Source: a candidate division WOR-3 bacterium (GTDB taxonomy: Bacteria > Hydrothermota > Tepidihabitantia > Tepidihabitantales > Tepidihabitantaceae). From it: DNA of 18,203 bases. Position 1 is the stretch's first letter; every line of letters starts with the position of its first letter. The stretch lies in the NCBI GenBank assembly GCA_965649295.1, contig CBFGKH010000017.1, forward strand, positions 1 to 18,203. The letters run 5' to 3'. Positions 1-18,203 of this stretch are shown piece after piece. The notes under the pieces were generated by a model that ran no database searches, was not told where the DNA came from, and saw only the letters and a program-made list of their open reading frames with translations. Made by a program: the position numbers and the translations under genes.

Positions 1-9
1 GAGCGATAG
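1..9 (+). CDS. Last codons (E-R-stop) of an upstream gene truncated by the window edge, probably another T9SS-sorted paralog
   Basis: GAG CGA TAG aligns with GAG CGC TAG ending the large gene at 6721-6729 and is followed by the same downstream repeat. Confidence 0.55.
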   Translation, partial: ER

Positions 10-67
10 GCTAGCGCAGCCCTCGGGCTGCCCAACCTGGCGGTGGCGGGCAGATGCCCGCCACCGC
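1..67 (+). repeat. Copy 1 of the T9SS-gene 3'-end/double-hairpin repeat
   Basis: 59/67 nt identical to 6721-6787. Contains GCAGCCC-TC-GGGCTGC and GCGGTGGCGGGCA-GA-TGCCCGCCACCGC (40-67). Confidence 0.93.
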
Positions 68-96: not shown

Positions 97-124
97 TTGA
101 CTTAGCTGCCTGCTTCTGTATCAT
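97..124 (+). promoter_or_regulatory. Putative sigma70-type promoter of the large surface-protein gene
   Basis: TTGACT (97-102), 16 bp, TATCAT (119-124). Confidence 0.65.
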
Positions 125-232
125 ATATATGTCTAAGAACTTAGCTTAGTAGCGGCAGTTCCTAGATGCGAGCGGGCGACTCGGGGGAGCCGACGTCGCT
201 TATGCTCACAACCAAAGCCGAGTGTTCGATTT

Positions 233-240
233 GGAGGAGG
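233..240 (+). promoter_or_regulatory. Shine-Dalgarno sequence
   Basis: GGAGGAGG 6 nt before ATG at 247. Confidence 0.85.
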
Positions 241-246
241 TTTCTT

Positions 247-3200
247 ATGCAGCGCAGGCTGGTAGTGGTCTTGCTCTCAATGCTGGTTGCGTGCGCCAGC
301 GCTACGGTGTACAACTGGACAATCAAGCCCGGCGGTGGCGGCACGTATCCGTCATTCGTCGCGGCAATTCAGCAGTTGCGCACAATCGCCAATGGTCCTG
401 GTATCGTTGATACCTACGATATTGTTGCCGATGTCGGTACGTACGCTGAGGCGTGCACGGTCAACTTCGCAACTGTTGACGACGGCATATCGCGTGGTTA
501 CGTCGTGTTCCGCACCGACGGCTCCGGCTACGCGACGATTACCGGCGGCGGTTCCCAGCGCGGTATCATAGTCACCGGCAATTTGCTTGAGACTAGGCGC
601 GTCACATTTCAGAACATTGAGGTTACCGGCGGTTCGCTCAATCGCATCCAAGTCCTCCGTTCCCGGCACGTGACCTTCCGCAACTGTCTTGTGAGTCCTG
701 GCGTTGGCGTAATAAATGACGCCGTCTATGTCGAGAACTCACCACAATTGACACTAGACAGCGTTGCAATCAGTGCTGGTGCTCCGCTCAGTTTCAGCAT
801 TTTGCGGGTCACCGGATTGGCGGCAACGCGCTCGGACTCGCTCTATGCCCGCCACTTGACCGTGACTGGCGGAACTGCCCAATACGGCATCAACCTCGAC
901 AATGCGTGGAACTGCCGGTTCGACACCGTAGCAGTGAGTGCCGGCGCGACGACGGCGTTCAGAATGCTCACTGGCCGAGTGGCCTTCATCAATGGCGGTA
1001 GCATCACCGGAACACACAGCACCTATGGCCTCCAGGTCAGCGGTTACGATTCGGTTATCGTGAGCGGACTCACGGTTGACCTGACTGGGGCTAGCAGCAC
1101 CACAGCTCTCCGGTTCGATGGTTCTGATACCTGCGTGGTCAGGCAGAGCAGCATAACCGGCTCGCCGACACTTGGAACCGGAATCCATTTCAACACTTCG
1201 ATTGACTGCCGGATTGATAGCTGCAATCTCACCAACATCTCCGGCACCGGGCTGCGTCTGCAGGGCACTAATAACACCCACAAGCGTGGGTCAATTACTG
1301 GCTGCAGCGTGAGTGGGCCGATTGCCAGTAATGGCATTCTGGTGGAGATGGATTCTGTTCGGATAGACAGTTGTGCAGTCACGGTGAACTCAAACCCAAC
1401 AAGCGCCGGCACGCTTGCCAACATCACCCTTCCTGCTGGCGTGGGCATGGTCGGTGGTTCTACACTGCGCAAGTGCTCATTTACCACTGCTGGCGACTTC
1501 CGCACGAACTACGGCATCCAAGTTGTGCGAGCGCCGAGAGTGAGGATTGACTCCTGCGTCATCAACCTGCCTTCTGCTACCTATCCGCCGGTCTGCGGCA
1601 TTCTGGATTCGCTTGGTTCGCGAGCTATCCGGATTACCGGCTGCCAGGTGACGGGTTTCTTCTCCCGTGAAGGGATTCTTATCGCCGTCAATGGTGACAG
1701 TGCCGTCATTGACAGTTGCCAGGTTACTTTCACCAATACTCGGAGTACAGCCTACGGAATTAGACTCGTGGGCACGGCAGGTTCTGAGACCGATTCCTGC
1801 ACTGTCCGCAAGACAACTGTTGCCACGGTTGGCGGCGGTCCGACGCTTGGCTATGGTTTTGGCGTTGACCGCGCCCGGTTCTGTCGGTTCGACACCTGTT
1901 CCGCCAGCAACATCAGCAACACTGGCTTTGTTCTGACGAATAGCTCGTTCCGAGCCCGATTGACCGGTTGCGGTATCAGTGGGCCGTTCACAACTGCCGG
2001 TATCAGCACCAACGCCTCCGACACCCTGGTTGTTGATAGCTGCAACATCCAGTGTACTACAACCGGCGGCACGATTGCCGGTGTATTGGCAACCGGATCG
2101 AACCGAATGACCGTACGCCGGACAACGATCAACGCCAGCGGTACGAATACGATCGGCTTTGGCGTCAACGTGACCGGAGCCGCGAACGGCTGTCGTGTTG
2201 ATAGCTGTGTCATCAGTAACGTCACTAATACCGGTATCCGTTTTGCCGGCGCGAGTGGTGCAAACCCGGCGAAGAACGGCCGTGTGACCGGCTGCTCGGT
2301 CAGCGGGCCGTTCACAATTGCCGGTATCGCTGCTGCCGACTACGCCGATACGCTGACAATTGACAGTTGCAGTGTGACTACGACTGCCAACATCGCCGGG
2401 CCGAACGCAATTGTTCGCGCCTACCGCTCACCTGGACTGCGCATCCGGAAGACGAGTTTGACCTCAACTGGCTCATCGCTCTATGCTGGGATCAACTTCC
2501 ATTTATCAGCCGCCTGCCGGATTGATACCTGCGTCATAACGACGCCAGGAGGTTCACCGTCGTTCGGTATCCTCGACACGCTCAACTCCAACAATACTCA
2601 GGTGAACGGCTGCAACATTATTCACAGCGGCAGCGCATTGCAGCGTGGCGTGTTCGTTGCCAATTCGAGCGGTGTGACGGTGCGGGATGTCGTCTCCACG
2701 GGGTCGAACGGCATCAACACCGCGGTGTTCGAAGGCCTGAACTCCAATGGTCTGACTTTCCAGCGTTGCTCGACTTACGCAAATAGTGTGCATAAGGGGG
2801 TGCAGCTTGACGGCTGCAACTACAGCAAAGTTTATGACCTCCGCGTACCCCAGTGCTACACGGTCGGCGTACGGCTGGTTCGTTCGGACTTCTGCGGCAT
2901 CCGTAACTGTCATGTTGGATTCGTGATTCCCCAGACCCCACTGCAGTCCATTCTGGTGGACTCGTCCAGTTACGACACTGTTGCTGCCTGTCGGATTGCG
3001 GGCAACGGGAATGTTGCACTGAAGTTCTACAATCCCAGCGGCGCCTCCGGCATTGGGCATTACATTGCTAACAACATGGTTCACGGTTGGGGTAACATCA
3101 CGGCCGGTTCTGCCGTCGGCATTGAGCTCACTAACCAGACCGGCCCGACTCTCTACTACAACACTGTCTTCGGTCCGGACAGCAGCAACTCAAACCAGAC

Positions 3201-6200
3201 TCAGGCTTACAACGTCAAACTGACAAGTGCGACTGGAGTCAAGTCCCGCAACAACATTTTTGTCAATCAGGGTGAGCCTGGTACTGCCTCGGCGACGTCG
3301 GCATGCTACTTTGTCTCGACCGGAATCCCGCCATCCAGTTTCACAATCTCCAACAACAACTGCTTCTGGTCATCTGGCGCCATCGCTACTAATGGTTCAA
3401 GCCAGCAATGGCTGACCCTAACCGATTGGCGAGGCTCCCCCGGCAATCCTGATACTAACAGTATCGAAGCCGATCCACTCCTTGTTGATGCCAGCCAACC
3501 CCAGCCGTTTGACCTTCACATTCTGGCCGGTTCTCCTTGTCGTTGGAAGGGAGCACCGCTTTCCGACGTTTCCACTGATTTCGACGGCGACGTTCGCGGC
3601 AGTGTTCATCCCTGCATTGGTGCTGATGAGTTCGTCGCTACCGATGTTCAGCCGCTGGCCATTCTTGCTCCTACCGGCGAAGTTGATTCCGGCACGGTCG
3701 TGACACCGCAGTGTCGGGTGGCCAGCTTCAGCAACACCGCGCAGACCTACAACATTCGAATGCGAATCGGCGGCGACTACGATAGCACCTTCACCGTCAC
3801 CAACCACGTAGAAGGCGAGACCCTGACCGTTACCTTCGCTTCGCCCGAAGATGACTGGACCGCGCTCGTCCGCGGCAATCATGCCGTTCTGTGCACGACC
3901 GAACTGGTCGGTGATAATAGCGGCACCAATCGTGTTACCGGCACAGTGTTCGTGCGGGCGCACGACGCTGCTGCGGAAGCGATTCTGGCGCCGGCTAGCA
4001 ACTCGGTATTTGCGCCCGGCGTTCAGGTAACGCCGCAGGCCCAGGTGCGCAATAACAGTAATGTGACCGAGAACATCCCGGTGACGTTCACGTTGACCGG
4101 AGCGACCGGCTACTCCAACTCCCAGACAGCAGACAACATCGCGCCTGGCGCTCTGGGAACGGTCAGCTTTGTTCAGAGCCCAGCGCTTGACCCCGGTTAC
4201 TATACGATGACCTGCGCCACTGAGCTGGTACCGGACGGCAACCCAGCCAACAATACCGTAAGTGGCAACTTCCTTGTCATTGGCGTGCCGACGTTGATCT
4301 ACCCGGTTGGCATCATGGTTAACACCGCTCAGCCGGCATTTGACTGGGACGACCTGGCGGGTGCAACGAGCTATGTCCTGCAGGCGGCAACCGACCCCGG
4401 CTTCAGCAACATCGTCTGCACCGAATACCCAACTGGTTCAACAGTAGTTCCGGGAACACCGCTGCCGGAAGGCGACATCTACTGGCGAGTACGCGGCGTG
4501 AATGTCCTCGAAGGCAGTTGGTCAACGACCGGCCACTTCGGAGTTGACCTTGGGCTACCCGACGCGCCGAATCTGCTTCAGCCACCCAGTAACGCCATGA
4601 ACGTGCCGGTGACACCGACTTTTGAGTGGACCAGCGTATCCTACGACGGTCGCCAGAACTTGGTGGCTAGCCGACCGTCGAAGAAGCAGCCGATTGATGC
4701 CATTACCTATCGGATTCAGGTCGCCGATAACGTTTCGTTCAACAACCCGATTGTTGATACCACGACCCTGAACACAACTCTGGTCTCGCCAGTGACATTA
4801 GCCAACTTCGTCAAATACTACTGGCGCGTCAACGCAACCGATGACGCTAACAACACCGGACCATGGGGCGGGCCGGATAGCTTCACCACTATCATTACCG
4901 TTCCGGATGTGCCGCAACTTGTAGCACCCGAGAACGGCGCTGTGAATGTGGCGGTAGTGGGCAATCTGGAATGGGCTGAAGCCAATCTAGCTGACGAATA
5001 CGACGTCTATCTCGATACTGTCAATCCGCCGGCGCAGCTACTTCAGAGCGGCGTGACCGTACCGACAATGGTTCCTTACTCCGGGCTCGAGAATGATCGC
5101 ACGTATTACTGGCAGGTCGTGGCTAAGAACGTTGCCGGCACAACACCTTCGGCAGTCTGGAACTTCAGAACAATCGTTGCCGTACCAAACGCACCGTTGC
5201 TGATTGCGCCGCCAGACACGGCCCGCGAGGTCCCGCTGAACGGTGAACTTGTCTGGCATCGTGCACCGCGGGCAGCAAGCTATGATGTTTACTTTGACAC
5301 GCTAAACCCGCCGGTCGCTTTGGCTGGAACAGGCCTGACTGACACCTCGTTGGCCTACTCCGGACTTCGCCGCCTGACCACCTACTACTGGTGTGTTGTC
5401 GCCCGGAACGTCGCCGGCGAGTCGGCATCAACCGTCTGGTCTTTCACGTCAGTACGACCTGTTGCCGGTGGCTGGACTTCGTTTGACACAATGACCGGTG
5501 GCCCGGTCCGTGACGGCGGCGGTATCACCTACAACGCCGACAAAGGCTTGATGTATGCCATCAAGGGCGGCAAGACGAATGAGTTCTGGCAGTACAACCC
5601 GGTAGAGACGACCTGGACCAAGCTCACCGACGTCACCGCTGGCACCAAGCCGGTCAACAAAGGCGCAGCCATCACCACTGGCGGCGGGTTCGTCTATGTG
5701 CTGAAGGGCAACAACACCTACGACTTCTACAAGTACGACATCGAGGCTGGGACCTGGGCTGCCTGCAAGCCCCTGCCCAAGGCGCTGGACCAGACTGCGA
5801 CCCGGGGCAAGGCGGCCAAGGGCGGCGGCAGCCTGGCCTACGTCTATACTCGCGAGTCGAGCTTCGTCTATACGCTGAAGGGCTCAGGCACAAACGAGTT
5901 CTACCGCTACGACGTGCTCCGCGACACCTTCTTCTCGCTGGCGCCCGCGCCATACAACACCAAGCCGAAGTACGACAAAGGTAGCTGGATTGCCTACGAC
6001 GGCAGCCAGTTCATCTACCTGATGCAGAACAAGTACAACGCCTTGTTCAAGTATGATGTCGTGAATGAGGCCTGGGTGACGACGCCGACGCTTGACCCGA
6101 TGCCGCTGAACAGCACGGTGACGGGCAAGAACAACAAGAAGGTCGGCGACGGTTCGTGCGCGGCCTTCAACCCGGATGGCGGGTATCTGTTTGCCATGAA

Positions 6201-6729
6201 GGGCAACAACACGCAGGAAGCGTGGAAATACCTGCCTGGGACGAGCGACACCTGGGTGGAGCTGGAGTCGATTCCGCAGGCCTATCCTGGCGGCAAGAAG
6301 AAGAAGGTGAAGGCCGGAGCCGGAGCGGTGTACTATCCGGAGGCTGGTGTCTTCTATGTCCAGAAGGGCAACAAGAGCAACCAGTTCTGGCGTTACACCC
6401 CAGGCATCGGCGGTCCGTACTATGCCGGTCGTCCGCAGCGTGAGGGCATCGCGGTCAGTGGTGTGACGAACCTAACCCACAGTCTAGCGATAGCACCGAA
6501 TCCGCTGGCTGGCGGTCAGGCAGTGGTGCGCTACACCTTGCCGCGGGCTGGGCTGGTGAGCCTGAGCGTCTGCGATGTCACTGGCCGAGTGGTGATGGAG
6601 CGGACGTTTGCGGCTGGCCGGACCGGCGTGCAGAGCCTCGACCTGCGCGGGCTCTCGGCTGGAGTGTACCTTGTCAAGCTCAATGCCGACGGGTTCACTT
6701 CGAGCCAGAAGCTCGTAGTCGAGCGCTAG
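247..6729 (+). CDS. Giant secreted/surface protein (2160 aa): signal peptide, long right-handed parallel beta-helix, choice-of-anchor Q motif, two CARDB/Ig-like domains, four FN3-like domains, six-blade Kelch propeller, T9SS type-A-like C-terminal sorting domain
   Basis: Start moved from 166 to ATG 247 (strong SD; signal peptide MQRRLVVVLLSMLVACASA). Repeating 'RIDSC..I....GI.V' beta-helix units to ~3400. DLHILAGSPC...DFDGDVR...CIGADEF at ~3511-3633. PxLxxP...W...YYW(R/Q/C)V units at ~4285-5460. Six KGxxTxEFxxY-like blades at ~5470-6405. C-terminal IAPNP...DVTGRVV...LSAGVYLVKL...SQKLVVER. Confidence 0.92.
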   Translation: MQRRLVVVLLSMLVACASATVYNWTIKPGGGGTYPSFVAAIQQLRTIANGPGIVDTYDIVADVGTYAEACTVNFATVDDGISRGYVVFRTDGSGYATITGGGSQRGIIVTGNLLETRRVTFQNIEVTGGSLNRIQVLRSRHVTFRNCLVSPGVGVINDAVYVENSPQLTLDSVAISAGAPLSFSILRVTGLAATRSDSLYARHLTVTGGTAQYGINLDNAWNCRFDTVAVSAGATTAFRMLTGRVAFINGGSITGTHSTYGLQVSGYDSVIVSGLTVDLTGASSTTALRFDGSDTCVVRQSSITGSPTLGTGIHFNTSIDCRIDSCNLTNISGTGLRLQGTNNTHKRGSITGCSVSGPIASNGILVEMDSVRIDSCAVTVNSNPTSAGTLANITLPAGVGMVGGSTLRKCSFTTAGDFRTNYGIQVVRAPRVRIDSCVINLPSATYPPVCGILDSLGSRAIRITGCQVTGFFSREGILIAVNGDSAVIDSCQVTFTNTRSTAYGIRLVGTAGSETDSCTVRKTTVATVGGGPTLGYGFGVDRARFCRFDTCSASNISNTGFVLTNSSFRARLTGCGISGPFTTAGISTNASDTLVVDSCNIQCTTTGGTIAGVLATGSNRMTVRRTTINASGTNTIGFGVNVTGAANGCRVDSCVISNVTNTGIRFAGASGANPAKNGRVTGCSVSGPFTIAGIAAADYADTLTIDSCSVTTTANIAGPNAIVRAYRSPGLRIRKTSLTSTGSSLYAGINFHLSAACRIDTCVITTPGGSPSFGILDTLNSNNTQVNGCNIIHSGSALQRGVFVANSSGVTVRDVVSTGSNGINTAVFEGLNSNGLTFQRCSTYANSVHKGVQLDGCNYSKVYDLRVPQCYTVGVRLVRSDFCGIRNCHVGFVIPQTPLQSILVDSSSYDTVAACRIAGNGNVALKFYNPSGASGIGHYIANNMVHGWGNITAGSAVGIELTNQTGPTLYYNTVFGPDSSNSNQTQAYNVKLTSATGVKSRNNIFVNQGEPGTASATSACYFVSTGIPPSSFTISNNNCFWSSGAIATNGSSQQWLTLTDWRGSPGNPDTNSIEADPLLVDASQPQPFDLHILAGSPCRWKGAPLSDVSTDFDGDVRGSVHPCIGADEFVATDVQPLAILAPTGEVDSGTVVTPQCRVASFSNTAQTYNIRMRIGGDYDSTFTVTNHVEGETLTVTFASPEDDWTALVRGNHAVLCTTELVGDNSGTNRVTGTVFVRAHDAAAEAILAPASNSVFAPGVQVTPQAQVRNNSNVTENIPVTFTLTGATGYSNSQTADNIAPGALGTVSFVQSPALDPGYYTMTCATELVPDGNPANNTVSGNFLVIGVPTLIYPVGIMVNTAQPAFDWDDLAGATSYVLQAATDPGFSNIVCTEYPTGSTVVPGTPLPEGDIYWRVRGVNVLEGSWSTTGHFGVDLGLPDAPNLLQPPSNAMNVPVTPTFEWTSVSYDGRQNLVASRPSKKQPIDAITYRIQVADNVSFNNPIVDTTTLNTTLVSPVTLANFVKYYWRVNATDDANNTGPWGGPDSFTTIITVPDVPQLVAPENGAVNVAVVGNLEWAEANLADEYDVYLDTVNPPAQLLQSGVTVPTMVPYSGLENDRTYYWQVVAKNVAGTTPSAVWNFRTIVAVPNAPLLIAPPDTAREVPLNGELVWHRAPRAASYDVYFDTLNPPVALAGTGLTDTSLAYSGLRRLTTYYWCVVARNVAGESASTVWSFTSVRPVAGGWTSFDTMTGGPVRDGGGITYNADKGLMYAIKGGKTNEFWQYNPVETTWTKLTDVTAGTKPVNKGAAITTGGGFVYVLKGNNTYDFYKYDIEAGTWAACKPLPKALDQTATRGKAAKGGGSLAYVYTRESSFVYTLKGSGTNEFYRYDVLRDTFFSLAPAPYNTKPKYDKGSWIAYDGSQFIYLMQNKYNALFKYDVVNEAWVTTPTLDPMPLNSTVTGKNNKKVGDGSCAAFNPDGGYLFAMKGNNTQEAWKYLPGTSDTWVELESIPQAYPGGKKKKVKAGAGAVYYPEAGVFYVQKGNKSNQFWRYTPGIGGPYYAGRPQREGIAVSGVTNLTHSLAIAPNPLAGGQAVVRYTLPRAGLVSLSVCDVTGRVVMERTFAAGRTGVQSLDLRGLSAGVYLVKLNADGFTSSQKLVVER

Positions 6730-6788
6730 GCTAACGCAGCCCTAGGGCTACCTAACCTTGCGGTGGCGGGCATCTGCCCGCCACCGCG
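6685..6788 (+). repeat. Copy 2 of the T9SS-gene 3'-end/double-hairpin repeat
   Basis: 103/104 nt identical to the reverse complement of 18100-18203 (one T/G difference at 6700). Confidence 0.97.
6760..6787. terminator. Strong GC-rich hairpin between convergent genes (possible terminator, transcript stabiliser or REP-like element)
   Basis: 13-bp perfect inverted repeat GCGGTGGCGGGCA-TC-TGCCCGCCACCGC. No clear U-tract follows on either strand. Confidence 0.55.
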
Positions 6789-6792
6789 CTTG

Positions 6793-7746
6793 TCAACGCT
6801 TGCGGCAGTAGTAGATGTCGGCTTCGAGTAGTCGGCTCGAATCGCCGCCAGTATAGAAGTGATGAACGAAGTAGAGATTGCCCGAGTCGTCAAGAGTCGG
6901 CTCGCCCGCAAACTGGGCAACGATTATCTCCGGTGTCTGCCAGTTGCCTGCCGAATCGGCCAGGGACCGATAGACACAAGGTCCCATCCACTGCTCGTTC
7001 CAGCCCGTGTACCAGAGTTCGCGCATATCGGATGAGACAAACGGCTGCGACTGGCTGAACGAATCGTTGATGTTCGCGTCCAGCCTGACCGGCATGCTCC
7101 AACCGGTCGCGGTCCGCTGCATCTGCCAGAGGTCAGAATTGCCAATTCCCTCAGCGCTGCCAAAGTACATCGTCTGATGGTCGCTAGTCAGATGGAACTC
7201 GCCGATGTTGTACTCGACATTGAGCTGATGCCCAGCATTGCGCCAGTCCTGCCACACGCCGTTCCTGCGCACCGCGGTGAATACGTCAATGTCACCGAGC
7301 ATGTCCCGGCTGCGGATTGAGGCAAACCAGAGCGTGTCACCGACCAGTTGCTGGCAGCCGTCCAGACTGATGTCGTCATTCAGTACCACGCGCACTGGCT
7401 CGGTCCATTCGCCGCCGACCCGCTGCGAGTACCAGATACCGGTTACACTGTCTCTCAACTGCTGCTCTACCGGCACGCGCACGTCCGGCGTGAAGAAGAA
7501 AAAGAACTCAGCTCCGTCAGCAGAGATGAACGGCGAGTCCTCTGCGCCCATCGAGTTGACTGGCCCGCTCATCGGCACCGGCTCGTCGTATTCGTTCGAC
7601 AGTAGCACCGGTGGAAACGGGTCGGTTGCCGGCGTTCCCTTCCTTGCATCGGCCGGAATCTTCGAGTACCGGTCGGCGATGAACGGCCACGGTTTCTCGC
7701 AGGCTGCAAGCAGTACGGTCAGAATCAGCAGTCCGGCTCGGATCAC
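6793..7746 (-). CDS. Lipoprotein with PD40/WD40-like (TolB-type) beta-propeller repeats
   Basis: Likely GTG start at 7746 after AAGGGAG, just past the upstream stop. Lipobox LLAAC. Repeats such as 'GPVNSMGAEDSPFISADG', 'NINDSFSQSQPFVSSDMRELWY' and 'W..P..L'. Confidence 0.8.
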   Translation of the reverse strand: MIRAGLLILTVLLAACEKPWPFIADRYSKIPADARKGTPATDPFPPVLLSNEYDEPVPMSGPVNSMGAEDSPFISADGAEFFFFFTPDVRVPVEQQLRDSVTGIWYSQRVGGEWTEPVRVVLNDDISLDGCQQLVGDTLWFASIRSRDMLGDIDVFTAVRRNGVWQDWRNAGHQLNVEYNIGEFHLTSDHQTMYFGSAEGIGNSDLWQMQRTATGWSMPVRLDANINDSFSQSQPFVSSDMRELWYTGWNEQWMGPCVYRSLADSAGNWQTPEIIVAQFAGEPTLDDSGNLYFVHHFYTGGDSSRLLEADIYYCRKR

Positions 7747-7747
7747 C

Positions 7748-8326
7748 CTACGCTCCCTTCGCGGCGAAGCCACGGGCGATGTCGCAGGCCAGCTCGACCA
7801 CTTCAACCGGGTCTTTGCCCAGCAGGAAGTAGAGCGGTTCCTTGCCCCAACCCCGAGTTTCGTAACAAACCCGCGGCGGCCGGCCCAATTCCTGCACCAG
7901 CATCTTCATCTTCCACGGTATCGAGCTCTTGTCCTTGCCAATCAGTTCCTTTGGCTCAACGCTCCGGTCGACGCCGCCAATCGTAATACCGCGCTCGCGG
8001 CAGTATTGTTCGACAAAGGAGTGAATCCGCTCGTTCCAGCGGAAGTTCATCCCGGCCCTGATTGCCGGGTCATACTTGCGTGCCTCAATTACCAGTCGTG
8101 CCATATGGTCAGACACGCCTGGTCTTATCGGACCTGATGCTTTTGGCATACCGCCGACGACCGTAATGCGGCCATCAACGCCGAGCACTTCCTGCGGCCC
8201 AGCCGCATCATCCGGCGCCACTACGACATTGACCCTCACTTCCGGCATCAAGACACTGAACTCTTGGCATGACTCAAGCAGCCGTACCGCCTCAGCCAGC
8301 CTTGCTTCGCCTTCTCGTCTTGTCAT
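7748..8326 (-). CDS. thiN: Stand-alone ThiN-type thiamine-phosphate synthase domain protein
   Basis: Motifs LMPEVRVN, GVDGRI, GVSDHMAR, AGMNFR and GWGKEP are typical of the ThiN (ThiP_synth) family. No ThiD or HTH domain is fused. Confidence 0.78.
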   Translation of the reverse strand: MTRREGEARLAEAVRLLESCQEFSVLMPEVRVNVVVAPDDAAGPQEVLGVDGRITVVGGMPKASGPIRPGVSDHMARLVIEARKYDPAIRAGMNFRWNERIHSFVEQYCRERGITIGGVDRSVEPKELIGKDKSSIPWKMKMLVQELGRPPRVCYETRGWGKEPLYFLLGKDPVEVVELACDIARGFAAKGA

Positions 8327-9369
8327 TGCTCCAGCGCCTTGAAGTAGGCGTTCCAGAACGGGTCAACAATCGGGTGTTCCAGCTTCTGCTCCCGGCCTGC
8401 CTCGACCAGCACCATTCCCTTGCGCGTGACCTCGCCGATGTCGGCGGCCGGTATCCGCTTCTTGCGCAGAGCATCCAGGACCTTCGCGGCCCGATTGGGT
8501 CGCACCATCGCAATCAACGTCCCTTCGCTGATTGACTTATAGGGATCAATGCTGTAAAGGCCGCAAATCTCGGCAACACCGGGCAGCAGCGGTATCTTCT
8601 CCTTCTCGACCCGCACGCCGAATCCGCCGGCCTGGGCCATCTCATAGAGCCCACCCCAGATTCCGCACTCGGTTGCATCGTGCATCACCGTCACGCCTCG
8701 CTCCCGCACGCCCACGCTCACTGCTGCCATTGCGTCCTCAACCACGCTCATCTGCCAAAAGAGCTTCTGTGCCCGCTTTGCGAATGCCGCACCGAACTCC
8801 TGTTCCAGCCGCTTCGGGAACATCGCCGCAAAGATGCCAGCGGCCTCAACTGCTGGCCCCTTGGTCACGATGATGCGGTCACCGGGCCGCACGAATTGCG
8901 GTGCCACATAGTCCCCAAGTCCCCCTTCGGCAATCACGGTCGCGCCGCCGACCATTGGGAACCCGCAGTTACCATACCGCGCCGTATGCCCGGTCACGAC
9001 CGTGACTCCATAACGCTTGCACTCGCGGTGAATCGTCTTCCAGACAATCTCCAGTTGTTCTTCGGTCGTCTGCATCGGCAGATTGAAGTCAATCGTGAGA
9101 TACTTCGGGGCCAGTCCGCTCGTGACGACGTCCGAAAGCAGAATGTGGATGGCGAACCACGCGGCCCGCTCCCAGCCGTACTCGGGAACGATGAAGACTG
9201 GGTCGGTCGTCAGTGCCAAGGCTCGGTTGCCGACGCGGATGATGCCGCAGTCCACCCCATGCATCGGCCCGACCAGCACATTCCGGCTTGCCGCACCGAG
9301 CCGCGGATAGATTAGCTCTTCAAATACCTTCTGGGATATCTTGCCAATTTCGGGCAGTTTCTCTCGCAT
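8323..9369 (-). CDS. AIR synthase family protein (PurM/HypE/ThiL-like ATP-binding fold)
   Basis: GKI...VLVGP.HGVDCG, TTDP, SDV.TSG..P, VTGHT, PGDRIIVTKG, MHDATECGIWGGLYEMA and SEGTL motifs. 4-nt overlap with thiN. Confidence 0.88.
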   Translation of the reverse strand: MREKLPEIGKISQKVFEELIYPRLGAASRNVLVGPMHGVDCGIIRVGNRALALTTDPVFIVPEYGWERAAWFAIHILLSDVVTSGLAPKYLTIDFNLPMQTTEEQLEIVWKTIHRECKRYGVTVVTGHTARYGNCGFPMVGGATVIAEGGLGDYVAPQFVRPGDRIIVTKGPAVEAAGIFAAMFPKRLEQEFGAAFAKRAQKLFWQMSVVEDAMAAVSVGVRERGVTVMHDATECGIWGGLYEMAQAGGFGVRVEKEKIPLLPGVAEICGLYSIDPYKSISEGTLIAMVRPNRAAKVLDALRKKRIPAADIGEVTRKGMVLVEAGREQKLEHPIVDPFWNAYFKALEQ

Positions 9370-9375
9370 GGCGCG

Positions 9376-9403
9376 ATTGTAGCCAGGTCGCTGAGCCGGT
9401 CAA
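9376..9403 (-). promoter_or_regulatory. Putative sigma70-type promoter, leaderless arrangement
   Basis: Minus strand TTGACC, 16 bp, TACAAT, 6 nt, ATG (9369). No SD sequence. Confidence 0.72.
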
Positions 9404-9408
9404 GAAAG

Positions 9409-9984
9409 CTAGCGACCGAACGGCGTGAAGACGAGGGCAGCCGAGTTGAGGCAGTAGCGCAACCCGGTTGGCCGAGGTCCATCCGGAAAGACGTGGCCAA
9501 GATGGGCGTCGCAGCGTTTGCAGAGAATCTCGACCCGTTCCATCCCGAAGCTGTGGTCCGGTTTCTCAGTGATGTTCTCTTTCGCAAACGGCTGAAAGAA
9601 ACTCGGCCAGCCGGTGCCTGACTCAAACTTCGCTGCTGACGAGAACAAGGGTAAGCTGCAGCAGACACACCGGTAGATGCCCGGCTCCTTGTTCGAAAGC
9701 AGTCCGCCACAGAACGCTGGCTCGGTTCCCTTGCGCCGGGTGACCCGATACTGTTCCGGAGTTAGTAGCCGCTGCCACTCTGAATCCGGCTTCACGACTT
9801 TGTCCACCTGCTGAGGCTCGGTCGGTTTGCCATCTGGCCCGGCCAGCCGGACAACCACCTTTTCTAGAGGTTCACTTTGGCTCATCTCTTTCTCCCGCGA
9901 TTTGGTTCTGGTAGTTCCGCCGCAACCACTACTGACCAGCACTACTGCTGTGGCCAGCAGCAGGATAGTAACCAGTCCGCGCAC
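9409..9984 (-). CDS. msrB: Peptide-methionine (R)-S-oxide reductase MsrB with predicted N-terminal lipoprotein signal
   Basis: EW...[50 protein letters not shown], and two CxxC zinc motifs. N-terminus [21 protein letters not shown]. Confidence 0.95.
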
Positions 9985-11190
9985 TCAGTTGCTCCAGCCA
10001 GCGGGCAGGCGCGCCTCGTAGGCGTCAGTGTAGTCATCGGGTGACAGCCGGCCCCAGTTTGAGCCGAACACGACCCTTGTGCCGGCCCGGTTGATGCTCG
10101 CGAACGCCTCGGCAAAGTAGTTCGAGCGCGGCGAACTGCCGGTGTAGCAGCGGGTCCTGCAGAGCTTGTAGATACGTGGGCTCGCCTCTAGCTCCAGCAT
10201 GAAGAGTAAGTTGTCCATCCACGAATGGGTCTTGCCTGGCGGCGGGTTGAGCGCGCCATAGGTAGAGACTAAGACCCACCCCGGCACCAGGTCACAGTTG
10301 CCCGAGATGTGCATGCCGATGTCCGGATTCACATCGAACGGAATCGAAAGCAACTGGGTCGCAGCGCCGGTCACCAGGTCGGCCATCTCGATATAGTCGG
10401 TCGCAACGTTCTGATAGACAATCACGTCGGTCGAATCAGCGGTTATGGCAACATCAGCATGTCCCATCGCGCCTGCCGGCATATCCACTTCGCCGGAGAA
10501 ATCGAGGTTGAACGACTGAAACGGCCTTGAGTCATAGGCAATCACTACCCGATTGCCCGACACGCTCATCGTCACGTGGTTCACCGCGTCCGGGAAGCTC
10601 GTCTTGAGCCCGAGCACCGAATCTCTATCCAGGTTATACGTGCAGACCCCAAGCAGATTGAACAGGCTGTCGCAGAGCATCAACGCCCAGTAGCGCCGGT
10701 CTCGTGACGCGTCGCCCTCGACCCCGGTCGTGATGTAGCGACAGCGGTTCACCAGTCCGGCAAAGTCGTGAATGAGCGCAGAATTCGAGTTATCGAGGTC
10801 ATAGGTGCGCAACTGAGTGCCGACCAAGTAGTAGAAAAGACTCGGGTCCGACTCGTGCCAGCGCGGCTCCATCTCTTGCTCGGTGCCAACCTCGCCGAGG
10901 CTGCGCACCAGCGCAAACCCGTCCTCGCGGTACAGGTAGTAGGTGCCGTCGTTACCGCGCAGCACGCAGTACGTGCCGTCGCAGTTCCAGGCATCGGCGC
11001 GGGCGTATTCGTTCTGGATGCCGTTACCGGAGTAGCCGTCACTTCTGTCGGTCATCCGGCATAACTGGGCTCCGTGGAGCGAATCGGCAAAGAAGACTCC
11101 CTTGGCCGGCAGTTCGGCCAGCGGTTTCTCACAGCCGGCAGCGAGCACCGCTGCCAGCGCGACCAGTATCAGCCAATTCCCTTTTGCCAT
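9985..11190 (-). CDS. Uncharacterised lipoprotein, probable beta-propeller
   Basis: Likely ATG at 11190 giving MAKGNWLILVALAAVLAAGC (lipobox). Beta-rich repeats 'AWNCDGTY', 'SVSGNRVVI', 'ASINRAGTRVVFGSNW'. Its stop abuts the msrB start. Confidence 0.78.
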   Translation of the reverse strand: MAKGNWLILVALAAVLAAGCEKPLAELPAKGVFFADSLHGAQLCRMTDRSDGYSGNGIQNEYARADAWNCDGTYCVLRGNDGTYYLYREDGFALVRSLGEVGTEQEMEPRWHESDPSLFYYLVGTQLRTYDLDNSNSALIHDFAGLVNRCRYITTGVEGDASRDRRYWALMLCDSLFNLLGVCTYNLDRDSVLGLKTSFPDAVNHVTMSVSGNRVVIAYDSRPFQSFNLDFSGEVDMPAGAMGHADVAITADSTDVIVYQNVATDYIEMADLVTGAATQLLSIPFDVNPDIGMHISGNCDLVPGWVLVSTYGALNPPPGKTHSWMDNLLFMLELEASPRIYKLCRTRCYTGSSPRSNYFAEAFASINRAGTRVVFGSNWGRLSPDDYTDAYEARLPAGWSN

Positions 11191-11195
11191 AGCTA

Positions 11196-11223
11196 ACTGT
11201 AACCCCGCGGCGCAATCCGTCAA
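11196..11223 (-). promoter_or_regulatory. Putative sigma70-type promoter, leaderless arrangement
   Basis: Minus strand TTGACG, 16 bp, TACAGT, 5 nt, ATG (11190). No SD sequence. Confidence 0.68.
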
Positions 11224-11321
11224 CCACCAGTGGCTACTCTGTCTTTGTCACTTGCCTGCGGCACAACTGTTGCACAAGGTATGCGCAAAGTCGCCTCAGT
11301 GATTAGCCATGCTGCCTCTTC

Positions 11322-11349
11322 TTGCCTCCTTTTCCGCTCGCTGTACCAT
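11322..11349 (+). promoter_or_regulatory. Putative sigma70-type promoter of the CDF gene, leaderless arrangement
   Basis: TTGCCT, 16 bp, TACCAT, 6 nt, TTG (11356). Pyrimidine-rich upstream sequence with no SD. Confidence 0.55.
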
Positions 11350-11355
11350 TCTCCG

Positions 11356-12258
11356 TTGACGCACGACCATAACCACACTGCCGAGGCCCGCCAGGGCTCG
11401 AGCCTGATTGTCTCCATCGTTCTGAATCTCGGCTTTGCCGTGGTCGAGCTTGTCGCTGGGCTTGCCGCCAATTCGCTCGCGCTCGTCGCCGACGCGGTGC
11501 ACGACTCAAGCGACGCGGTCGCGCTCGGCCTCTCCTACTTCGGGTTGCGGCTTTCGGCCCGCGCTCCTGACCGGCGGCGGACGTTCGGGTACAAGAAAGT
11601 CCGCATCCTGACTGCGTTCATCAATGCGCTTGTCCTCGCCCTCTTGACCGCGTTCATCGTCCGCGCCGCTGTACTCCGCATCTTTCGTCCGGAACCGGTA
11701 CAGAGCCCGGTGCTCATCTTCGTGGCGATTGCCGGACTCGCCATCAACGGTGCCGCAGTTCTGCTCCTGCGCCGTGACCAGCACAGCCTGAACATCCGCG
11801 CCGCAATGTGGCATCTAATGGAGGATTTTCTAGGTTGGGTGGTCGTGCTCGTTGGCGGCATCGTCATCCACTTCACCGGCTGGTTCTGGATTGACCCGGT
11901 ACTGTCGCTGCTTGTCAGTGCGTTTGTCATCTGGGGTGCCTGGTCGGTCTTCCGCGAGTCAACTCGCATCCTGATTGATTCGACACCCCAGGACCTGAGC
12001 TTCGATGAGATTCATGATTTCATCGTCGGATTCGACCCCCAGATTGCCGAGACCCACGACCTCCATATCTGGACTATCGGCGAAGGCGAGCGGGCCCTGA
12101 TGGCCCACCTTGTTGTCGCTGATGGCCCGGTCAGCTCATTTCATCCCCTGCTCGCCCGGCTTGAAACCGCGCTGCATGAACGCTACGGGATTGGCCACGT
12201 GACGTTCGAGCTCGAGTGTGGTGAGTGCAAGTCGGGCGACAACGTCTGCCAGCAGTAA
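11356..12258 (+). CDS. czcD: Cation diffusion facilitator (CzcD/ZitB-like Zn/Co/Cd efflux transporter)
   Basis: NSLALVADAVHDSSD, RRTFGYKK, SLNIRAAMWHLMED, IDPVLS, HDLHIW and GIGHVTFELE motifs with six hydrophobic segments. Likely TTG start giving the His-rich MTHDHNH. Confidence 0.9.
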   Translation: MTHDHNHTAEARQGSSLIVSIVLNLGFAVVELVAGLAANSLALVADAVHDSSDAVALGLSYFGLRLSARAPDRRRTFGYKKVRILTAFINALVLALLTAFIVRAAVLRIFRPEPVQSPVLIFVAIAGLAINGAAVLLLRRDQHSLNIRAAMWHLMEDFLGWVVVLVGGIVIHFTGWFWIDPVLSLLVSAFVIWGAWSVFRESTRILIDSTPQDLSFDEIHDFIVGFDPQIAETHDLHIWTIGEGERALMAHLVVADGPVSSFHPLLARLETALHERYGIGHVTFELECGECKSGDNVCQQ

Positions 12259-12294
12259 GGACAACCACGACCTACGGCCGGACGCGGCAATATT

Positions 12295-15200
12295 CTAAAG
12301 CCGGATTCGCCGCAGCCGGAGCGAGTTGGTGACGACGTTGATGGATGAGAGCGCCATCGCCGCCTCAGCGATGACCGGATGGAGCAGGCCGAGCATCGCG
12401 AGCGGAATGGCTACGACGTTGTAGAAGAAGGCCCAGAACAGATTCTGCCGAATCTTGGCAAAGGTCGCCCGCGACAACCGCACCGCAGCAACGACACCAT
12501 CAAGGCTGCCGCGCACCAGTGTTACGTCGCTCGACTCGATAGCGATGTCCGTGCCCGTGCCAATGGCGATGCCAACATTTGCCGCCTTGAGTGCGGGCGC
12601 GTCGTTGATACCGTCGCCGACCATTGCCACCAGGCCAAACTCGCGCTGCAGCTCAGCGATTACCTGTTGCTTTTGGGCTGGCAGCACCTCGGCCACGATG
12701 CGGCCGATGCCCAGTTCAGCACCGATTCTGGTTGCGGTCTCGCGGTTGTCGCCGGTGAGCATTATCGGGACGATGCCGAGCGACTTTAGTGCTTCGATAG
12801 CCGTGCGCGAGTCTGGCTTGACCGTGTCAGCAGCACCGATGACTCCGGCAACCTTGTCTGCCACTCCAACGAAGAGCACAGTCCGGGCACGCGACTGCAG
12901 TTGGGCAGCGGTCGGTGCCAGCGCCTGCGTGTCGATTCCGGCCGCAGCGAGCAACTCAGCCTTACCGACAAGCGCTGGCTTGCCGTCAACCAGCCCCTTC
13001 ACGCCCTTGCCGGGTATCGCCTGAACGGCGCTTGCGGCCGCTGCCGCAACTCCCTGTCTCTGGGCCGCGGTCAGCACCGCAGTGGCAATCGGATGCTCCG
13101 AACCTTGCTCCAGGGCAGCGGCAAGCCGTAGCACAGCGACTGAATCGAAGCCTGCAGCCGGCACAACATCAGTGACCTCGGGCCGACCATGAGTAATCGT
13201 ACCGGTCTTATCAAAGACAATTGCCCTGACATCTTTCAGGGTCTGGATTGCCTCGACGGAACGGAACAGAATCCCTTTCTCGGCACCGACCCCTGACCCG
13301 ACCAGCAGCGCGGTCGGCGTGGCCAGACCGAGCGCACACGGACAGGCGATTACCAGTACGGCAACGCCGGCAGCAAACGCGAGCGAAGCGGCTGTGAGAC
13401 TGGGATCAACCCAGGGCAAGAACCCGCTGGCCCAGACCAAGACCGGCCGCAAGGCCGAGCCGAACAAAGCCCAGCCCGCTGCGGTAATCAGCGCCAGGAC
13501 GATTACCACCGGCACAAATCTAGCAGTTACTCTGTCGGCCAACACCTGGATCGGAATCTTCTTGCCCTGTGCCTGCTCGACAAGTTCGATTACTTGAGCA
13601 AGAAATGTGTCCCTACCGACATGCGTTACCTCAACCTTGACTAGCCCGTTACCGTTAATGGTCCCGCCGATGACTCTGTCTCCTGGCCCGCGTTCTACCG
13701 GCAGCGACTCGCCGGTTGCCAGCGATTCATCAATGGTTGTGCTGCCCTCGATAATGCGACCGTCAGTCGGTATCTTCTCGCCTGGTCGCACAACCATTAT
13801 GTCGCCGGGCTCCAGTTGCCCGACCGGTATCTCCTTTTCGCCTGTGTCGGCTACGATTCGGGCCGTGCGCGCGCCCAGCGCTACGAGCTTGCGAATCGCC
13901 TGTGAGGCGCGACCTTTGGCTGTTGTCTCGATGTACCGGCCGGTCAGAAAGATGGCCATTATCATTCCACCGACTTCGGCAAAGCTCTGGATAGGCAGCC
14001 CGGCCAGCACAGCGATACCAGATACGAGTGTTGCAATCGTGCCGAGCACAATCAGCACTTCCATTGATGCCGAACCCGCTCGCAACGAGCCCCACGCGCC
14101 CCGGATTGCTACCCAACCCGGAATGAAGAGCACAGCGGCTCCGAACAGAACCGCCAGCAGCTCGGCGAACGGCACATGCCAGCCCAGCATGTGCAGCATC
14201 ATCAGTACCATCGGCGGCAGGGCCAGTGCCCAGGCGAGAATCAGTCGGGTCCGCGCCTTCTGTTGCTCTGCCGTTGCTCCTTCAGCTTCCGATTCCTCGA
14301 CCTGCCTGATGTCGTATCCAACAGCAGCGACCGCCTTTGCCATATCGGCGATACTCGAAACCTTGGGGTCATACTCGACCAGCGCCTTTTCGAGGGCGAA
14401 GTTCACAGTGGCTTGCTTCACGCCTGGCAGCCGGTTCAGCGCCTTCTCAACCGTGGCAACACAGCTTGCGCACGACATTCCGCCTACTGACAATGTCACG
14501 TTTTCAGTCCTACCCAGTTCCCCTTTCGGTAGCAGCACCGGCTCCGGCAGTTCTTGGTCTGGCTGCTCAGTTCTGACCACAGCGGTCTGGGCACCCACTT
14601 CTGACTTCGCCCGGATGAACCGCTCCGGCTCGGCTTGGAATCGCTTGAGACAGTTCGGGTTACAGAAGTAGTAAGTCGTGCCCTTGTACTCCCACTTGCC
14701 CGCCTCATCTCCTTCCCGCACGCTCATCTTGCAGACCGGGTCAATGTGCACCGCAGGCTCTGCCTGCTGCTCCGGCTCAGTCGGCTGCGTTCTCGCTTCG
14801 GCACTCTCGAAGCTGACTTCGTCCGCCGGATGTAGGTATCCCTCCGGATTCCGCTGGAACTTCTCAAGGCACACTGCGCTGCAGAAGTAGTAGGTCTCGC
14901 CCTGGTATCGCCAGCGGCCGACCTCGGTTCCTTCCATCACGCCCATCTTGCAGACTGGGTCAACGTGCGACCGCGACGGCGGCAATGGCGCTTCCTTCGG
15001 TTCCGGTCGAACTGTTACGGTTACAGCCGGCCGAGCTACGGGTTTAGGTTTGGGGTGCAACACCGCCTCTGGATCCATTTCGAACCGCTGACGGCAGTTC
15101 GTGCTGCAGAAGTAGTAGGTCGTTCCCTTATACTCGACCTTTCCGGCTTCGCGGCCCTCGATGACCTTCATGCGACAGACCGGGTCAAGATGGACCATTG

Positions 15201-15453
15201 CCTGCCAGTCTTTTGCTTCCTCGACCCTGTCGAGAGGCTCTGACGGCTGCTCCTTGGTTTCTGTTGGTTGTTTACTGCCCTTGTGGGCTGTCGCCAGATA
15301 CTCCTCAGGGTCCTGCATGAACTTCCGTGCGCAGGCCTTGCTGCAGAAGTAGTAGATTCGGCCGTCATACTCACGCCTTGCGCCCTCCTCGCCAGTTAGC
15401 AGTTGTTTGTGGCAAACTGGGTCATTGTGGACGGCCGGCTTCTTGTCCTTCAT
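12295..15453 (-). CDS. copA: Cu(I)-translocating P1B-1 ATPase with four YHS domains and one HMA domain
   Basis: [36 protein letters not shown] and MALSS motifs. HMA motif GMSCASC. Four DPVC...YYFC..C...F units. Confidence 0.95.
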
Positions 15454-15577
15454 CGTCTTAGTAACGGCTAGTTACCACTTCTGCTAGTAGAAAATCTGGA
15501 ACCACTCCCACCGCTACGAAGAAGCTGGGCTTCGTGGTGCGTCCCGGGCGCAGTCGAATCCCAACCTTGTGCTGTTA

Positions 15578-15664
<87 letters not shown>

Positions 15665-15725
15665 GTGTGTGCCGTTCACAGGTTGCACTAATACGGTCAG
15701 AACCCGGGTCAGGCATCACGCTCTT

Positions 15726-15753
15726 AGCCTATAATCTCTCTTGCCGGTGTCAA
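15726..15753 (-). promoter_or_regulatory. Putative promoter of tRNA-Ser
   Basis: Minus strand TTGACA, 16 bp, TAGGCT. Confidence 0.65.
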
Positions 15754-15755
15754 AC

Positions 15756-16403
15756 CTAGTGAATCAGCACGGTCGTGCCCTTACGCACGGCACTGACCAC
15801 CGACCGCAGCGCAGCATCCGGCAACTCGATGTATCCGCCCTCGACTGCCTCAGCCGCGACTGCCTCCCGCACTTTACCATGAATCACAATGTCGCCGCCT
15901 AAGAAGATTTCGCCGGCGCCAAAAGCCCGCGGCACGACTCGGCTGGCTGAGTCCTTAGGCGGTACCTGTCCGTGTTTCTCATAGACCCAGTCCGGTCGGT
16001 ACCAGTCAGTATTGTTTGATACTGCCAGCACTTCGAGCGTGCCGACTGGCAGTCGTGCCAGGCCTGCCTGAACCGGCCCGGCGAGCCGATAACCAGTCTC
16101 AAGCACAATCTTGTTGCCGATTGCCAGTTGTAGTTTCTGCTCACTGCGGTTGATAATCAGATAAGGGTCGCCACCGGCAATCGACGCCAGCCGTCGTTCG
16201 AGAAACTGCTCTTCCAGGGCAAGTTGTCGCCGCACTGCTGCCAGACTGTCCCGTTCCTGCTTCAGAATCTGCCAGCGGCCAGCGCTCGCTTGGAGCCCGG
16301 CCTGGAGCCCGGCCTTGCCAAACGCATCTATCAGCCGGACGAGGCCTAGCCCGACTAGCACGACAGCTGCCACTTGCCATGCCCGTCTCGTATTGGCCGC
16401 CAT
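15756..16403 (-). CDS. Membrane-anchored L,D-transpeptidase-like (YkuD fold) protein lacking the catalytic Cys
   Basis: Collinear with the upstream LDT: TM segment, coiled coil, YLIINRSEQKLQL, LPVG, WYRPDWVY, GGDIVIHG, GTTVLIH. VEGGYIEL replaces VTHGCIRV. Confidence 0.75.
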   Translation of the reverse strand: MAANTRRAWQVAAVVLVGLGLVRLIDAFGKAGLQAGLQASAGRWQILKQERDSLAAVRRQLALEEQFLERRLASIAGGDPYLIINRSEQKLQLAIGNKIVLETGYRLAGPVQAGLARLPVGTLEVLAVSNNTDWYRPDWVYEKHGQVPPKDSASRVVPRAFGAGEIFLGGDIVIHGKVREAVAAEAVEGGYIELPDAALRSVVSAVRKGTTVLIH

Positions 16404-17089
16404 CAGTAAATGAACACCCTCGTGCCGATTGGCACGGAGTCGTAAAGCACTTTGAGTTCCTCTTTGCCCACCCGGATGCAGCCGTGGGTCACGCTGCGAC
16501 CCAGCAGATGCTCCTGTGGTGTGCCATGAATCATCACGCCGCCGCCCAGGTCAAGCAGATAGTCGCCCAGAATCCCGCGCTCACGCCGTAACGGTGAGTT
16601 CCACGCTGGAATCGACTCACCGGCCTCAACAAATGCCCAGTCCGGCTTCAGCCAGACCGGTTTCTCTTTCTTGCGCACTACGGTCATGATGCCGCGTGGT
16701 GTCTCAAACACCCATTTACGTCGTCCACTGCGCAAGGTGTCGCCTCGGCCAGTTGAAACTCTGGCCACGAGCAACGTATCGCGGCCCCGGCGCAGGAGCA
16801 ACCGATTGGTGCCCGGATTGATGGTGATGTAGAGTTCGTCGGTGACTGAACGTTCCAGACTATCGCTGAGCACGGCTACTGACTGGCCGAGTCTCTCAAT
16901 CTCCCGCCGCAACTGCGGCATTTCAAGCTGTAGCCTTAGTACCCTGGCCCGCGCGTCAAGAAAACTCCGGGCGATTGCGAGCCCGTCCGTCTCAATGCTT
17001 TGCCTTACCGGCAAGCGCCACTCCGCCAAAGCCAATGCTCCGGCGCAAAACAGGGCCGCAATCAGCAGTTGTAGTGGGCCGGGTTTCAT
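16403..17089 (-). CDS. L,D-transpeptidase (YkuD/ErfK-SrfK family)
   Basis: VSTG, FETPRG, PVWLKPDW, IHGT...LGRSVTHGCIRV and VPIGTRVFIY motifs, after an N-terminal hydrophobic segment and coiled coil. Confidence 0.93.
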   Translation of the reverse strand: MKPGPLQLLIAALFCAGALALAEWRLPVRQSIETDGLAIARSFLDARARVLRLQLEMPQLRREIERLGQSVAVLSDSLERSVTDELYITINPGTNRLLLRRGRDTLLVARVSTGRGDTLRSGRRKWVFETPRGIMTVVRKKEKPVWLKPDWAFVEAGESIPAWNSPLRRERGILGDYLLDLGGGVMIHGTPQEHLLGRSVTHGCIRVGKEELKVLYDSVPIGTRVFIY

Positions 17090-18069: not shown

Positions 18070-18097
18070 AGTATATCGAGCAACATCCATCTGTCAA
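18070..18097 (-). promoter_or_regulatory. Putative promoter of the peptidoglycan-remodelling operon
   Basis: Minus strand TTGACA, 16 bp, TATACT. Confidence 0.75.
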
Positions 18098-18099: not shown

Positions 18100-18203
18100 C
18101 GCGGTGGCGGGCAGATGCCCGCCACCGCAAGGTTAGGTAGCCCTAGGGCTGCGTTAGCCTAGCGCTCGACTACGAGCTTCTGGCTCGCAGTGAACCCGTC
18201 GGC
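18100..18203 (-). repeat. Copy 3 of the T9SS-gene 3'-end/double-hairpin repeat (runs off the window end)
   Basis: Reverse complement is 103/104 identical to 6685-6788. Confidence 0.97.
18159..18203 (-). CDS. C-terminal fragment of another T9SS-sorted paralog (ADGFTASQKLVVER-stop), truncated by the window edge
   Basis: Minus-strand translation matches ADGFTSSQKLVVER-stop of the 247-6729 protein at 13/14 aa. Confidence 0.8.
   Translation of the reverse strand, partial: ADGFTASQKLVVER

Follow-up and report, generated by a model that had tools for sequence, protein, structure and literature searches.

Near-identical Kelch-propeller and sorting-domain ends in T9SS cargo paralogs of a candidate division WOR-3 genome, bounded downstream by a GC hairpin

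The window analysed here is a stretch of 18,203 nt that makes up the entire contig C17 of genome G000, a short-read metagenome bin of 2.28 Mb in 19 contigs from a candidate division WOR-3 bacterium. It carries gene A, whose product combines a right-handed beta-helix, Ig/fn3-like repeats, Kelch motifs and a type A sorting domain of the type IX secretion system (T9SS); the subject of this work is the 3′ end of this gene, a module that recurs in other genes of the same genome. The sorting domain, or C-terminal domain (CTD), occupies amino acids 2109-2185 and scores 38.9 bits with TIGR04183 (cut-off 23) and 32.5 bits with PF18962 (cut-off 27), while a hydrophobic stretch, LVVVLLSMLVACASA, is visible in the translation near the N-terminus. 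Two components of the translocon, SprA and PorV, were sought in the genome: SprA_N matches with 56.7 bits in a SprA-like frame of 1864 amino acids, and PorV has four matches over the cut-off, to PorV-like barrels. About 143 of the 1935 crude genes of G000 end in a T9SS-like sorting domain, a count that comes from an iterated hidden Markov model and may be too high, gene set and CTD calls both being crude. The last 419 amino acids of gene A were modelled with AlphaFold using 56 aligned sequences (mean pLDDT 91.2), and the model comprises a six-bladed propeller (residues 1-314), a linker of low confidence (315-334) and a beta-sandwich (338-417); in Foldseek searches the propeller groups with Kelch domains, such as those of Keap1, KLHL12 and the designed SAKe6 proteins, with E values of about 1e-12.

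The CTD codons of gene A run to ...SQKLVVER and are followed by the stop codon (6727-6729), a short palindrome and, 30 nt past the stop, a GC hairpin with a 12-bp stem and a 4-nt loop (Table 1). A repeat search of the window detected this tail as an inverted repeat with arms of 107 nt, 6685-6791(+) and 18097-18203(-), that are 98% complementary; within them, 6685-6788(+) matches 18100-18203(-) at 103 of 104 bases, copies A and D thus differing at one base, and a third copy, E, matches 6721-6787 with positions 1-67 (59/67). These three copies, and the location of both window ends inside the repeat, had been pointed out in an earlier note on this DNA and are confirmed, the window being a complete contig. 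The same note held that at least three T9SS cargo genes share the tail; sharing is indeed found, and the number turns out to be larger, with six full tails in the genome (A, D and E in the window, B on C7, C on C5 and F on C18) plus an orphan fragment. This seventh tail, C6:1-117(-), consists of just 29 sorting-domain codons and the palindrome, with stop codons upstream and the passenger absent; the hairpin that goes with it is probably at C4:1-38(+), where the contig tip shows two odd bases.

The repeated unit is much longer than the 104 nt that the earlier note had described as a cassette, a size that is not borne out. The apparent left limit at 6685 arises because contig C17 ends at 18203, and the 104 nt are the portion that this contig end leaves visible, whereas the module measures about 1.28 kb, from about 5500 to 6790, and comprises the entire six-bladed Kelch propeller, the linker, the T9SS type A sorting domain, the stop codon and the 3′ untranslated region (UTR) with the short palindrome and the GC hairpin, in this order. 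Window positions 5467-6787 are 90% alike to C7:89267-90578 over 1324 nt, and C5:187936-187035 is 88.6% alike to the window over 914 nt, reaching the end of that contig. Seven genes were picked by an exact 23-nt anchor at the start of the module, namely A, B and five frames, open at the 3′ side, at ends of C14, C16 (both of them), C9 and C11. Across all 21 pairs, identity is 48-71% in the 300 nt ahead of the left edge and 92.5-100% in the first 93-250 nt after it, the step falling at about 5487-5512. The right edge was equally uniform in the six tails: in each of the 15 pairs, identity is 81-100% over the final 67 nt up to the end of the hairpin and 42-54% over the 100 nt that follow, and likeness stops 0-5 nt past the hairpin in every copy, so that the coincidence of the right boundary with the hairpin, as proposed earlier, holds for every pair. 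The suspicion that the assembly had broken at these repeats proved right as well, with 11 of the 38 contig ends of the bin lying inside the module. Other contig ends fall in other repeat families (C5 start; C10 start; C1 end, C7 and C12 end; C9 start, C4 and C11 end); among them are arrays with a repeat length of about 110 nt at the starts of C5 and C10, and repeats of 98-100% identity that are common to three contigs.

The module belongs to a larger gene family, since 24 further frames of G000 end in the propeller and CTD architecture (at least 25 genes in all), most of them with 30-48% protein identity, while a nearly identical module (88-100% at the DNA level) is restricted to a subset of seven or eight genes. 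The passengers of the near-identical genes are different: A has a beta-helix, the C9 gene CARDB with an InhA-like MAM domain, the C11 gene CARDB, and the remaining ones Ig/fn3. The view of the tail as part of a DNA unit that exists in several copies, each attached to its own kind of N-terminal passenger, with identity that extends to synonymous and non-coding sites, is therefore upheld. Family members also occur in tandem: in the window E precedes A, C18 carries three genes, and pairs are present on C7, C1, C2 and C5; the family can be said to form tandem arrays because the single 7.2-kb contig C18 carries three members. There, C18:1-7181 on the minus strand holds a module tail, a complete family gene of 1735 amino acids and the head of a third gene; the likeness of the complete gene to A ranges from 89% to 62% along the module. 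Among public proteins, 304 contain the module at E <= 1e-20, joined to varied passengers such as peptidases S8, C25 and M14 and CARDB; where a source is named, which is the case for a few, it reads candidate division WOR-3, and the closest non-self protein is 64% alike.

The synonymous divergence (dS) of the module and of the passenger region was compared for genes A and B in bins of 33 codons. Before the edge dS is 1.99 and 1.32; it is 0.71 in the bin at 5455-5550, which straddles the edge, 0.05-0.16 at 5551-6045, 0.29-0.82 at 6046-6441 and 0.12-0.31 at 6442-6726, and between A and C no synonymous difference was found in 28.7 sites over 6541-6639. The three copies A, B and C have 145 variable sites, at which the agreeing pair switches in blocks, from AC to AB, to BC and back to AC; the site patterns form 58 runs against 96 +/- 5.3 after shuffling, with none of 10000 shuffles as low. 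In quartets with an outgroup the counts depend on the segment, the grouping BC|AO being backed by 24 sites over 6061-6450, against 1 and 6 for the other two groupings, and by 0 sites in both flanking segments. An intermediate paralog on C18 is patchy too: its divergence from A in these three segments amounts to 10.9%, 22.5% and 38.4%. The differences between copies are spread over all four bases, and no adenine bias was found in them. The paralogs are thus unequally alike along their length, contrary to a simple recent duplication, and the jump in dS at the left edge together with the mosaic site patterns makes exchange between paralogs, by copying or conversion, the best explanation, in keeping with what the earlier note had supposed. 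Within the patch in which A stands apart, 6108-6135 codes for a hypervariable propeller loop, NSTVTGKNNKK in A and VGR-SGK-SKK in B and C; in related strains at least three further variants of this loop are present as loose ends at 6107-6108.

The RNA of 6724-6800 folds with -39.1 kcal/mol (z = -3.42), and none of 200 shuffled sequences folds as well; in copy C, a T>C change on one arm is matched by A>G on the other, and the stem is kept. A perfect GC hairpin of at least 9 bp lies within 100 nt of the stop codon in 18 of the 25 module paralogs, each with a sequence of its own and several with a common GGCGGCGGGC core. Genome-wide, there are 142 perfect hairpins of at least 10 bp, and hairpins of at least 9 bp follow 45 of 143 crude sorting-domain genes against 87 of 1792 other crude genes (odds ratio 9). 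In copy D, the -35 box of a promoter-like site begins 3 nt past the hairpin. The stop of a convergent open reading frame (ORF), 6793-7806(-), lies 5 nt from the hairpin of gene A. Because GC hairpins follow most paralogs and many other genes, and promoter-like sites follow two of the copies, the hairpin is most simply read as the putative terminator of the gene, closing its transcription unit, and that of gene A is a probable terminator for the convergent ORF too. The hairpin is part of the gene unit and changes slowly, in the manner expected of a paired structure. The sequences past the hairpins are GCTTGTCA, GTTTTGAC, AACTGTTG, AGCTTTAT, CTATTTCC, AACTGGCA and GTTTTTCG. The exact hairpin of the window was met in a pattern scan of genome contigs at 17 places, in unrelated organisms (Clostridia, Streptomyces and others), which are read as chance terminators. 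In an Rfam scan of the window no family matched at the repeat, the only match being a tRNA at 15578-15664.

The orientation of the hairpin loop flips between copies, being AGAT in three, ATCT in three and ACCT in one. Positions 40-69 and 6758-6787 are 100% complementary over 30 nt, and the comparison takes in the hairpins at C7:90549-90580 and C18:7084-7109 as well. The flip could result from two adjacent substitutions or from a strand switch within the palindrome. A different hairpin was observed in G016, a genome of another genus, where five module genes (loci L076 and L077, contigs C40 and C84) that are only 66-83% alike in coding sequence are followed by one and the same hairpin of 10-13 bp, GAGGGGCGGC...GCCGCCCCTC; it has six occurrences in that genome, the sixth at C54:9637.

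Table 1. Coordinates of the module, its copies and associated signals in the 18,203-nt window
Feature	Position	Strand	Basis or remark
Copy E, coding end of the upstream paralog: E-R codons and stop	1..9	+	Aligns with 6721-6729 of gene A; cut by contig start
Copy E, 3′ UTR: palindrome 18-29, GC hairpin 40-67, loop AGAT	10..67	+	88% alike to 6721-6787
Sigma-70-like promoter match, TTGACT-16-TATCAT (10/12), between copy E hairpin and gene A start	97..124	+	Consensus match only
Gene A, 2187 aa: beta-helix passenger, Ig/fn3-like repeats, Kelch propeller, T9SS type A CTD	166..6729	+	ORF and domain searches
Module, coding part: propeller ~5470-6411, disordered linker ~6412-6471, CTD 6490-6720	5500..6729	+	Identity step, predicted fold, TIGR04183
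Variable patch of the module (blades 4-6 and linker): A odd one out, B = C	6066..6465	+	Divergence and site patterns
Shared 3′ UTR: palindrome AGCCCTAGGGCT 6738-6749, hairpin 6760-6787, loop ATCT; probable terminator	6730..6787	+	Alignment of copies, RNA fold
Sigma-70-like promoter match, TTGACA-16-TATACT (11/12), ahead of ORF 17086-18024(-)	18070..18097	-	Consensus match only
Copy D tail: 14 codons 18203-18162, stop 18161-18159, palindrome, hairpin 18128-18101	18100..18203	-	Cut by contig end

Independent sequence data came from four hot-spring metagenome runs of two studies, examined as Logan contigs. The strain in these runs is about 6% off the window, both in the flank (47/730 and 49/719 differences) and in the module (31/497 and 19/300), and its contigs break at 5477-5529 and at 6786-6791, the same two edges as in the window. 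Contig depth was 51 for the module and 5.45 for the flank in run X1, 126-144 and 20.4 in X2, 241 and 28.3 in X3, and 13-20 and 3.6 in X4; overall, the module is assembled as single collapsed contigs with 3-9 times the depth of the flank. These depths are compatible with 5-9 identical copies per genome in the related strain, a reading that is weakened by the fact that Logan contig depths are not copy numbers. The module copies of one strain resemble each other more closely than the same locus does across strains. Joints listed for these runs, with sides of 20-52 letters at 88% likeness, were left out of account. At most a fraction of 0.17 of the sampled words of the window was present in any sequencing run, and none of those runs was of RNA. 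Among 40 relatives compared, the module was found in 23 of the 24 genomes of the same family; outside G000, none of the matches listed exceeds 77% over more than about 100 nt, with short patches up to 96%.

As for the machinery, RecA is present in the genome (438 bits). Of six Pfam families searched for in the assembled genome, RVT_1 (PF00078), Y1_Tnp (PF01797), Resolvase, rve and DDE_Tnp_1 gave no match, and the recombinases that were found are two tyrosine recombinases, on C14 and C9, away from the copies. The earlier note had gone on to propose a dedicated system for surface-protein diversification whose boundary is set by the hairpin, and this part is unsupported: machinery of this kind was not found in the assembled genome, GC hairpins come after most paralogs and many other genes, and the homogenised portion is the constant, not the variable, part of the protein.

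Taken together, a subset of old paralogs probably keeps its C-terminal module of about 1.28 kb alike by gene conversion of the RecA type, the hairpin being a terminator. Most genes with the propeller and CTD architecture are old paralogs; in the subset, repeated, non-reciprocal homologous exchange would take place between paralogs, some of which stand in tandem or inverted on one contig. Such exchange would be confined to pre-existing homology and, because it runs only within it, would halt at both edges: on the left at the start of the unrelated passenger or stalk sequence, which is a domain border, and on the right where the transcription unit closes. The hairpin, a terminator presumably kept by selection on its structure, would be the last conserved sequence usable as homology. 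The data show the multiple copies, the two edges, the mosaic in dS and the fold. That conversion, rather than another copying process, moves the DNA, and that the hairpin terminates transcription, we infer from the sequence comparisons described above.

Several observations weigh against this account. Classical conversion requires homology on both sides; the hairpin itself is homogenised, with the GGTGG variant in six of seven copies, and no homology lies beyond it, so the resolution of the exchange on the right-hand side, at the hairpin, is unexplained by classical conversion. As a terminator, the hairpin has a weak or absent T run, with 1-5 T in the first 8 nt after it, and a scan for the terminator consensus calls none of the three window copies. 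In the closed genome of a relative, G004, the paralogs of one module gene are only 66-87% alike, and eight module copies in G016 only 66-83%; homogenisation is thus not a general trait of the family, as judged from two relatives with one query each. Transposases, moreover, are often lost from bins. The comparison itself is limited to two full modules and one 0.9-kb tail, the five heads and four tails cannot be paired from the assembly, and, in a short-read bin, contigs A and B run through 500 nt of 98-99% identity, so that the fine mosaic may in part be path-switching by the assembler.

This last point leads to the alternative in which the paralogs are real, and their near identity and mosaic pattern come from collapse or chimerism in the assembly, the true copies being more diverged. 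The share of contig ends inside the module, the passage of contigs A and B through nearly identical stretches and the possible occurrence of shared graph nodes at contig ends would all fit such an artefact. It is nevertheless considered unlikely, because each of the seven heads has its own single-base differences in the shared stretch, and hence they are not one consensus, because copy D differs from A by one base, and because four independent runs from two studies have the same edges and high-depth collapsed contigs.

A slightly less likely alternative is that the hairpin itself delimits the exchange: replication or repair would stall at this GC hairpin of 12-14 bp, and the nascent strand end would switch to the identical hairpin of another paralog, from which it would copy inward, through the sorting domain to the propeller. 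A template switch of this kind would give the same right edge without homology beyond it, occasional flips of the loop and orphan tails. If it were true, an uncultured phylum would use terminator hairpins as cis-acting starts for homogenising, and re-equipping, those ends of its surface proteins that serve secretion and anchoring.

More doubtful still is a dedicated mobile or programmed cassette, of the REP/RAYT, integron attC, diversity-generating retroelement (DGR) or another hairpin-directed type, which would be pasted onto passengers, with the hairpin acting as a site of recombination or priming. The identical edges of every copy, the passenger-free 3′ fragment on C6, the loop inverted between copies (AGAT and ATCT) and the G016 hairpin, which follows five diverged module genes and occurs six times in that genome, speak for it. 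It is opposed by the lack of matches to the five enzyme families in a bin that scored 100% complete, by differences without adenine bias, by a hairpin that is never separate from the module in the genome and elsewhere was matched exactly at just those 17 places in unrelated organisms, and by a left edge that lies within an ORF, at a domain border common to all 25 paralogs. Three specific candidates were rejected: a DGR, on the zero matches to PF00078 and the differences over all four bases; REP/RAYT, on the zero matches to PF01797 and the attachment of every hairpin copy to a module; and an integron attC cassette, on the left edge inside an ORF and the distance of the tyrosine recombinases (C14, C9) from the copies.

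Recent duplications of whole genes, followed by fast divergence of the passengers and without any exchange, are very improbable. Several family members do stand in tandem, as such duplications would leave them; however, dS falls from 1.3-2.0 to 0.05-0.16 within about 100 nt, the passenger domains differ in kind (beta-helix; CARDB with InhA-like MAM; Ig/fn3), the closest pair shifts along the module and the downstream flanks are unrelated, so that duplication alone is refuted, provided that the assembled sequences are reliable. Least probable of all is selection at the nucleotide level without exchange, for example on a common mRNA 3′ region to which a single regulator or small RNA binds, since, although in G016 conservation extends past the coding sequence into the 3′ UTR and hairpin, it cannot account for 1.2 kb of synonymous identity or for the shifting closest pair, and no Rfam family matches there.

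The modules of A(+) and D(-) are inverted around 11.3 kb of housekeeping genes (6790-18100), which comprise ThiN, an AIR-synthase-like gene, MsrB, a CDF transporter, a P-type ATPase, a tRNA, YkuD and an M15 peptidase; recombination between the two modules would invert this segment. The ATPase, 12298-15453(-), is a P-type heavy-metal ATPase with four N-terminal YHS domains, which account for four direct repeats of 63 nt, 219-237 nt apart, at 14622-15365.

The finding is probably a further case of a known behaviour of gene families, copying among paralogs, and offers an example outside Bacteroidota of T9SS cargo genes that share a constant propeller and CTD end at the DNA level. The shared module accounts for the fragmentation of the bins of this group at these genes, and head-to-tail joins of such genes in short-read bins are not trustworthy. 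A literature search returned nothing on T9SS in WOR-3 or on this module, which is no proof of absence from print.

Among known systems, hagA, rgpA and kgp of Porphyromonas gingivalis appear to be the closest printed precedent found. In PMC5266723 they are described as T9SS cargo with identical adhesin repeats and a conserved CTD, on which automated assembly fails, and as a case of combinatorial modularity for which domain rearrangement and gene conversion by homologous recombination are invoked. Here too, different N-terminal parts are joined to a near-identical C-terminal sequence that the assembly leaves unresolved. Unlike that host-associated species, the present genome comes from a hot-spring habitat and from another phylum, candidate division WOR-3 by the source names of homologs; and, in place of internal adhesin repeats, the shared part is a Kelch propeller with CTD and terminator, which has common edges in seven or eight genes.

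Prokaryotic concerted evolution by gene conversion, as defined in PMC6053082 and PMC8223754, is resembled in that paralogs within the genome are closer than homologs elsewhere, tracts are mosaic and synonymous sites are homogenised; the present case differs from the general one in that only the 3′ third or less of the gene is affected and that the converted block would include a non-coding terminator. The hairpin has the 12-14 bp GC-rich stem-loop, the compensatory change and the promoter-like site after it that would suit an intrinsic terminator, whereas, unlike in clear Rho-independent terminators, its T run is weak or absent. It is also similar to REP elements, being GC-rich, 28 nt long and repeated in the genome; unlike REP/RAYT, it is non-coding and bound to the module, is present in 7 copies rather than hundreds, and is found in a genome in which no Y1 transposase was detected.

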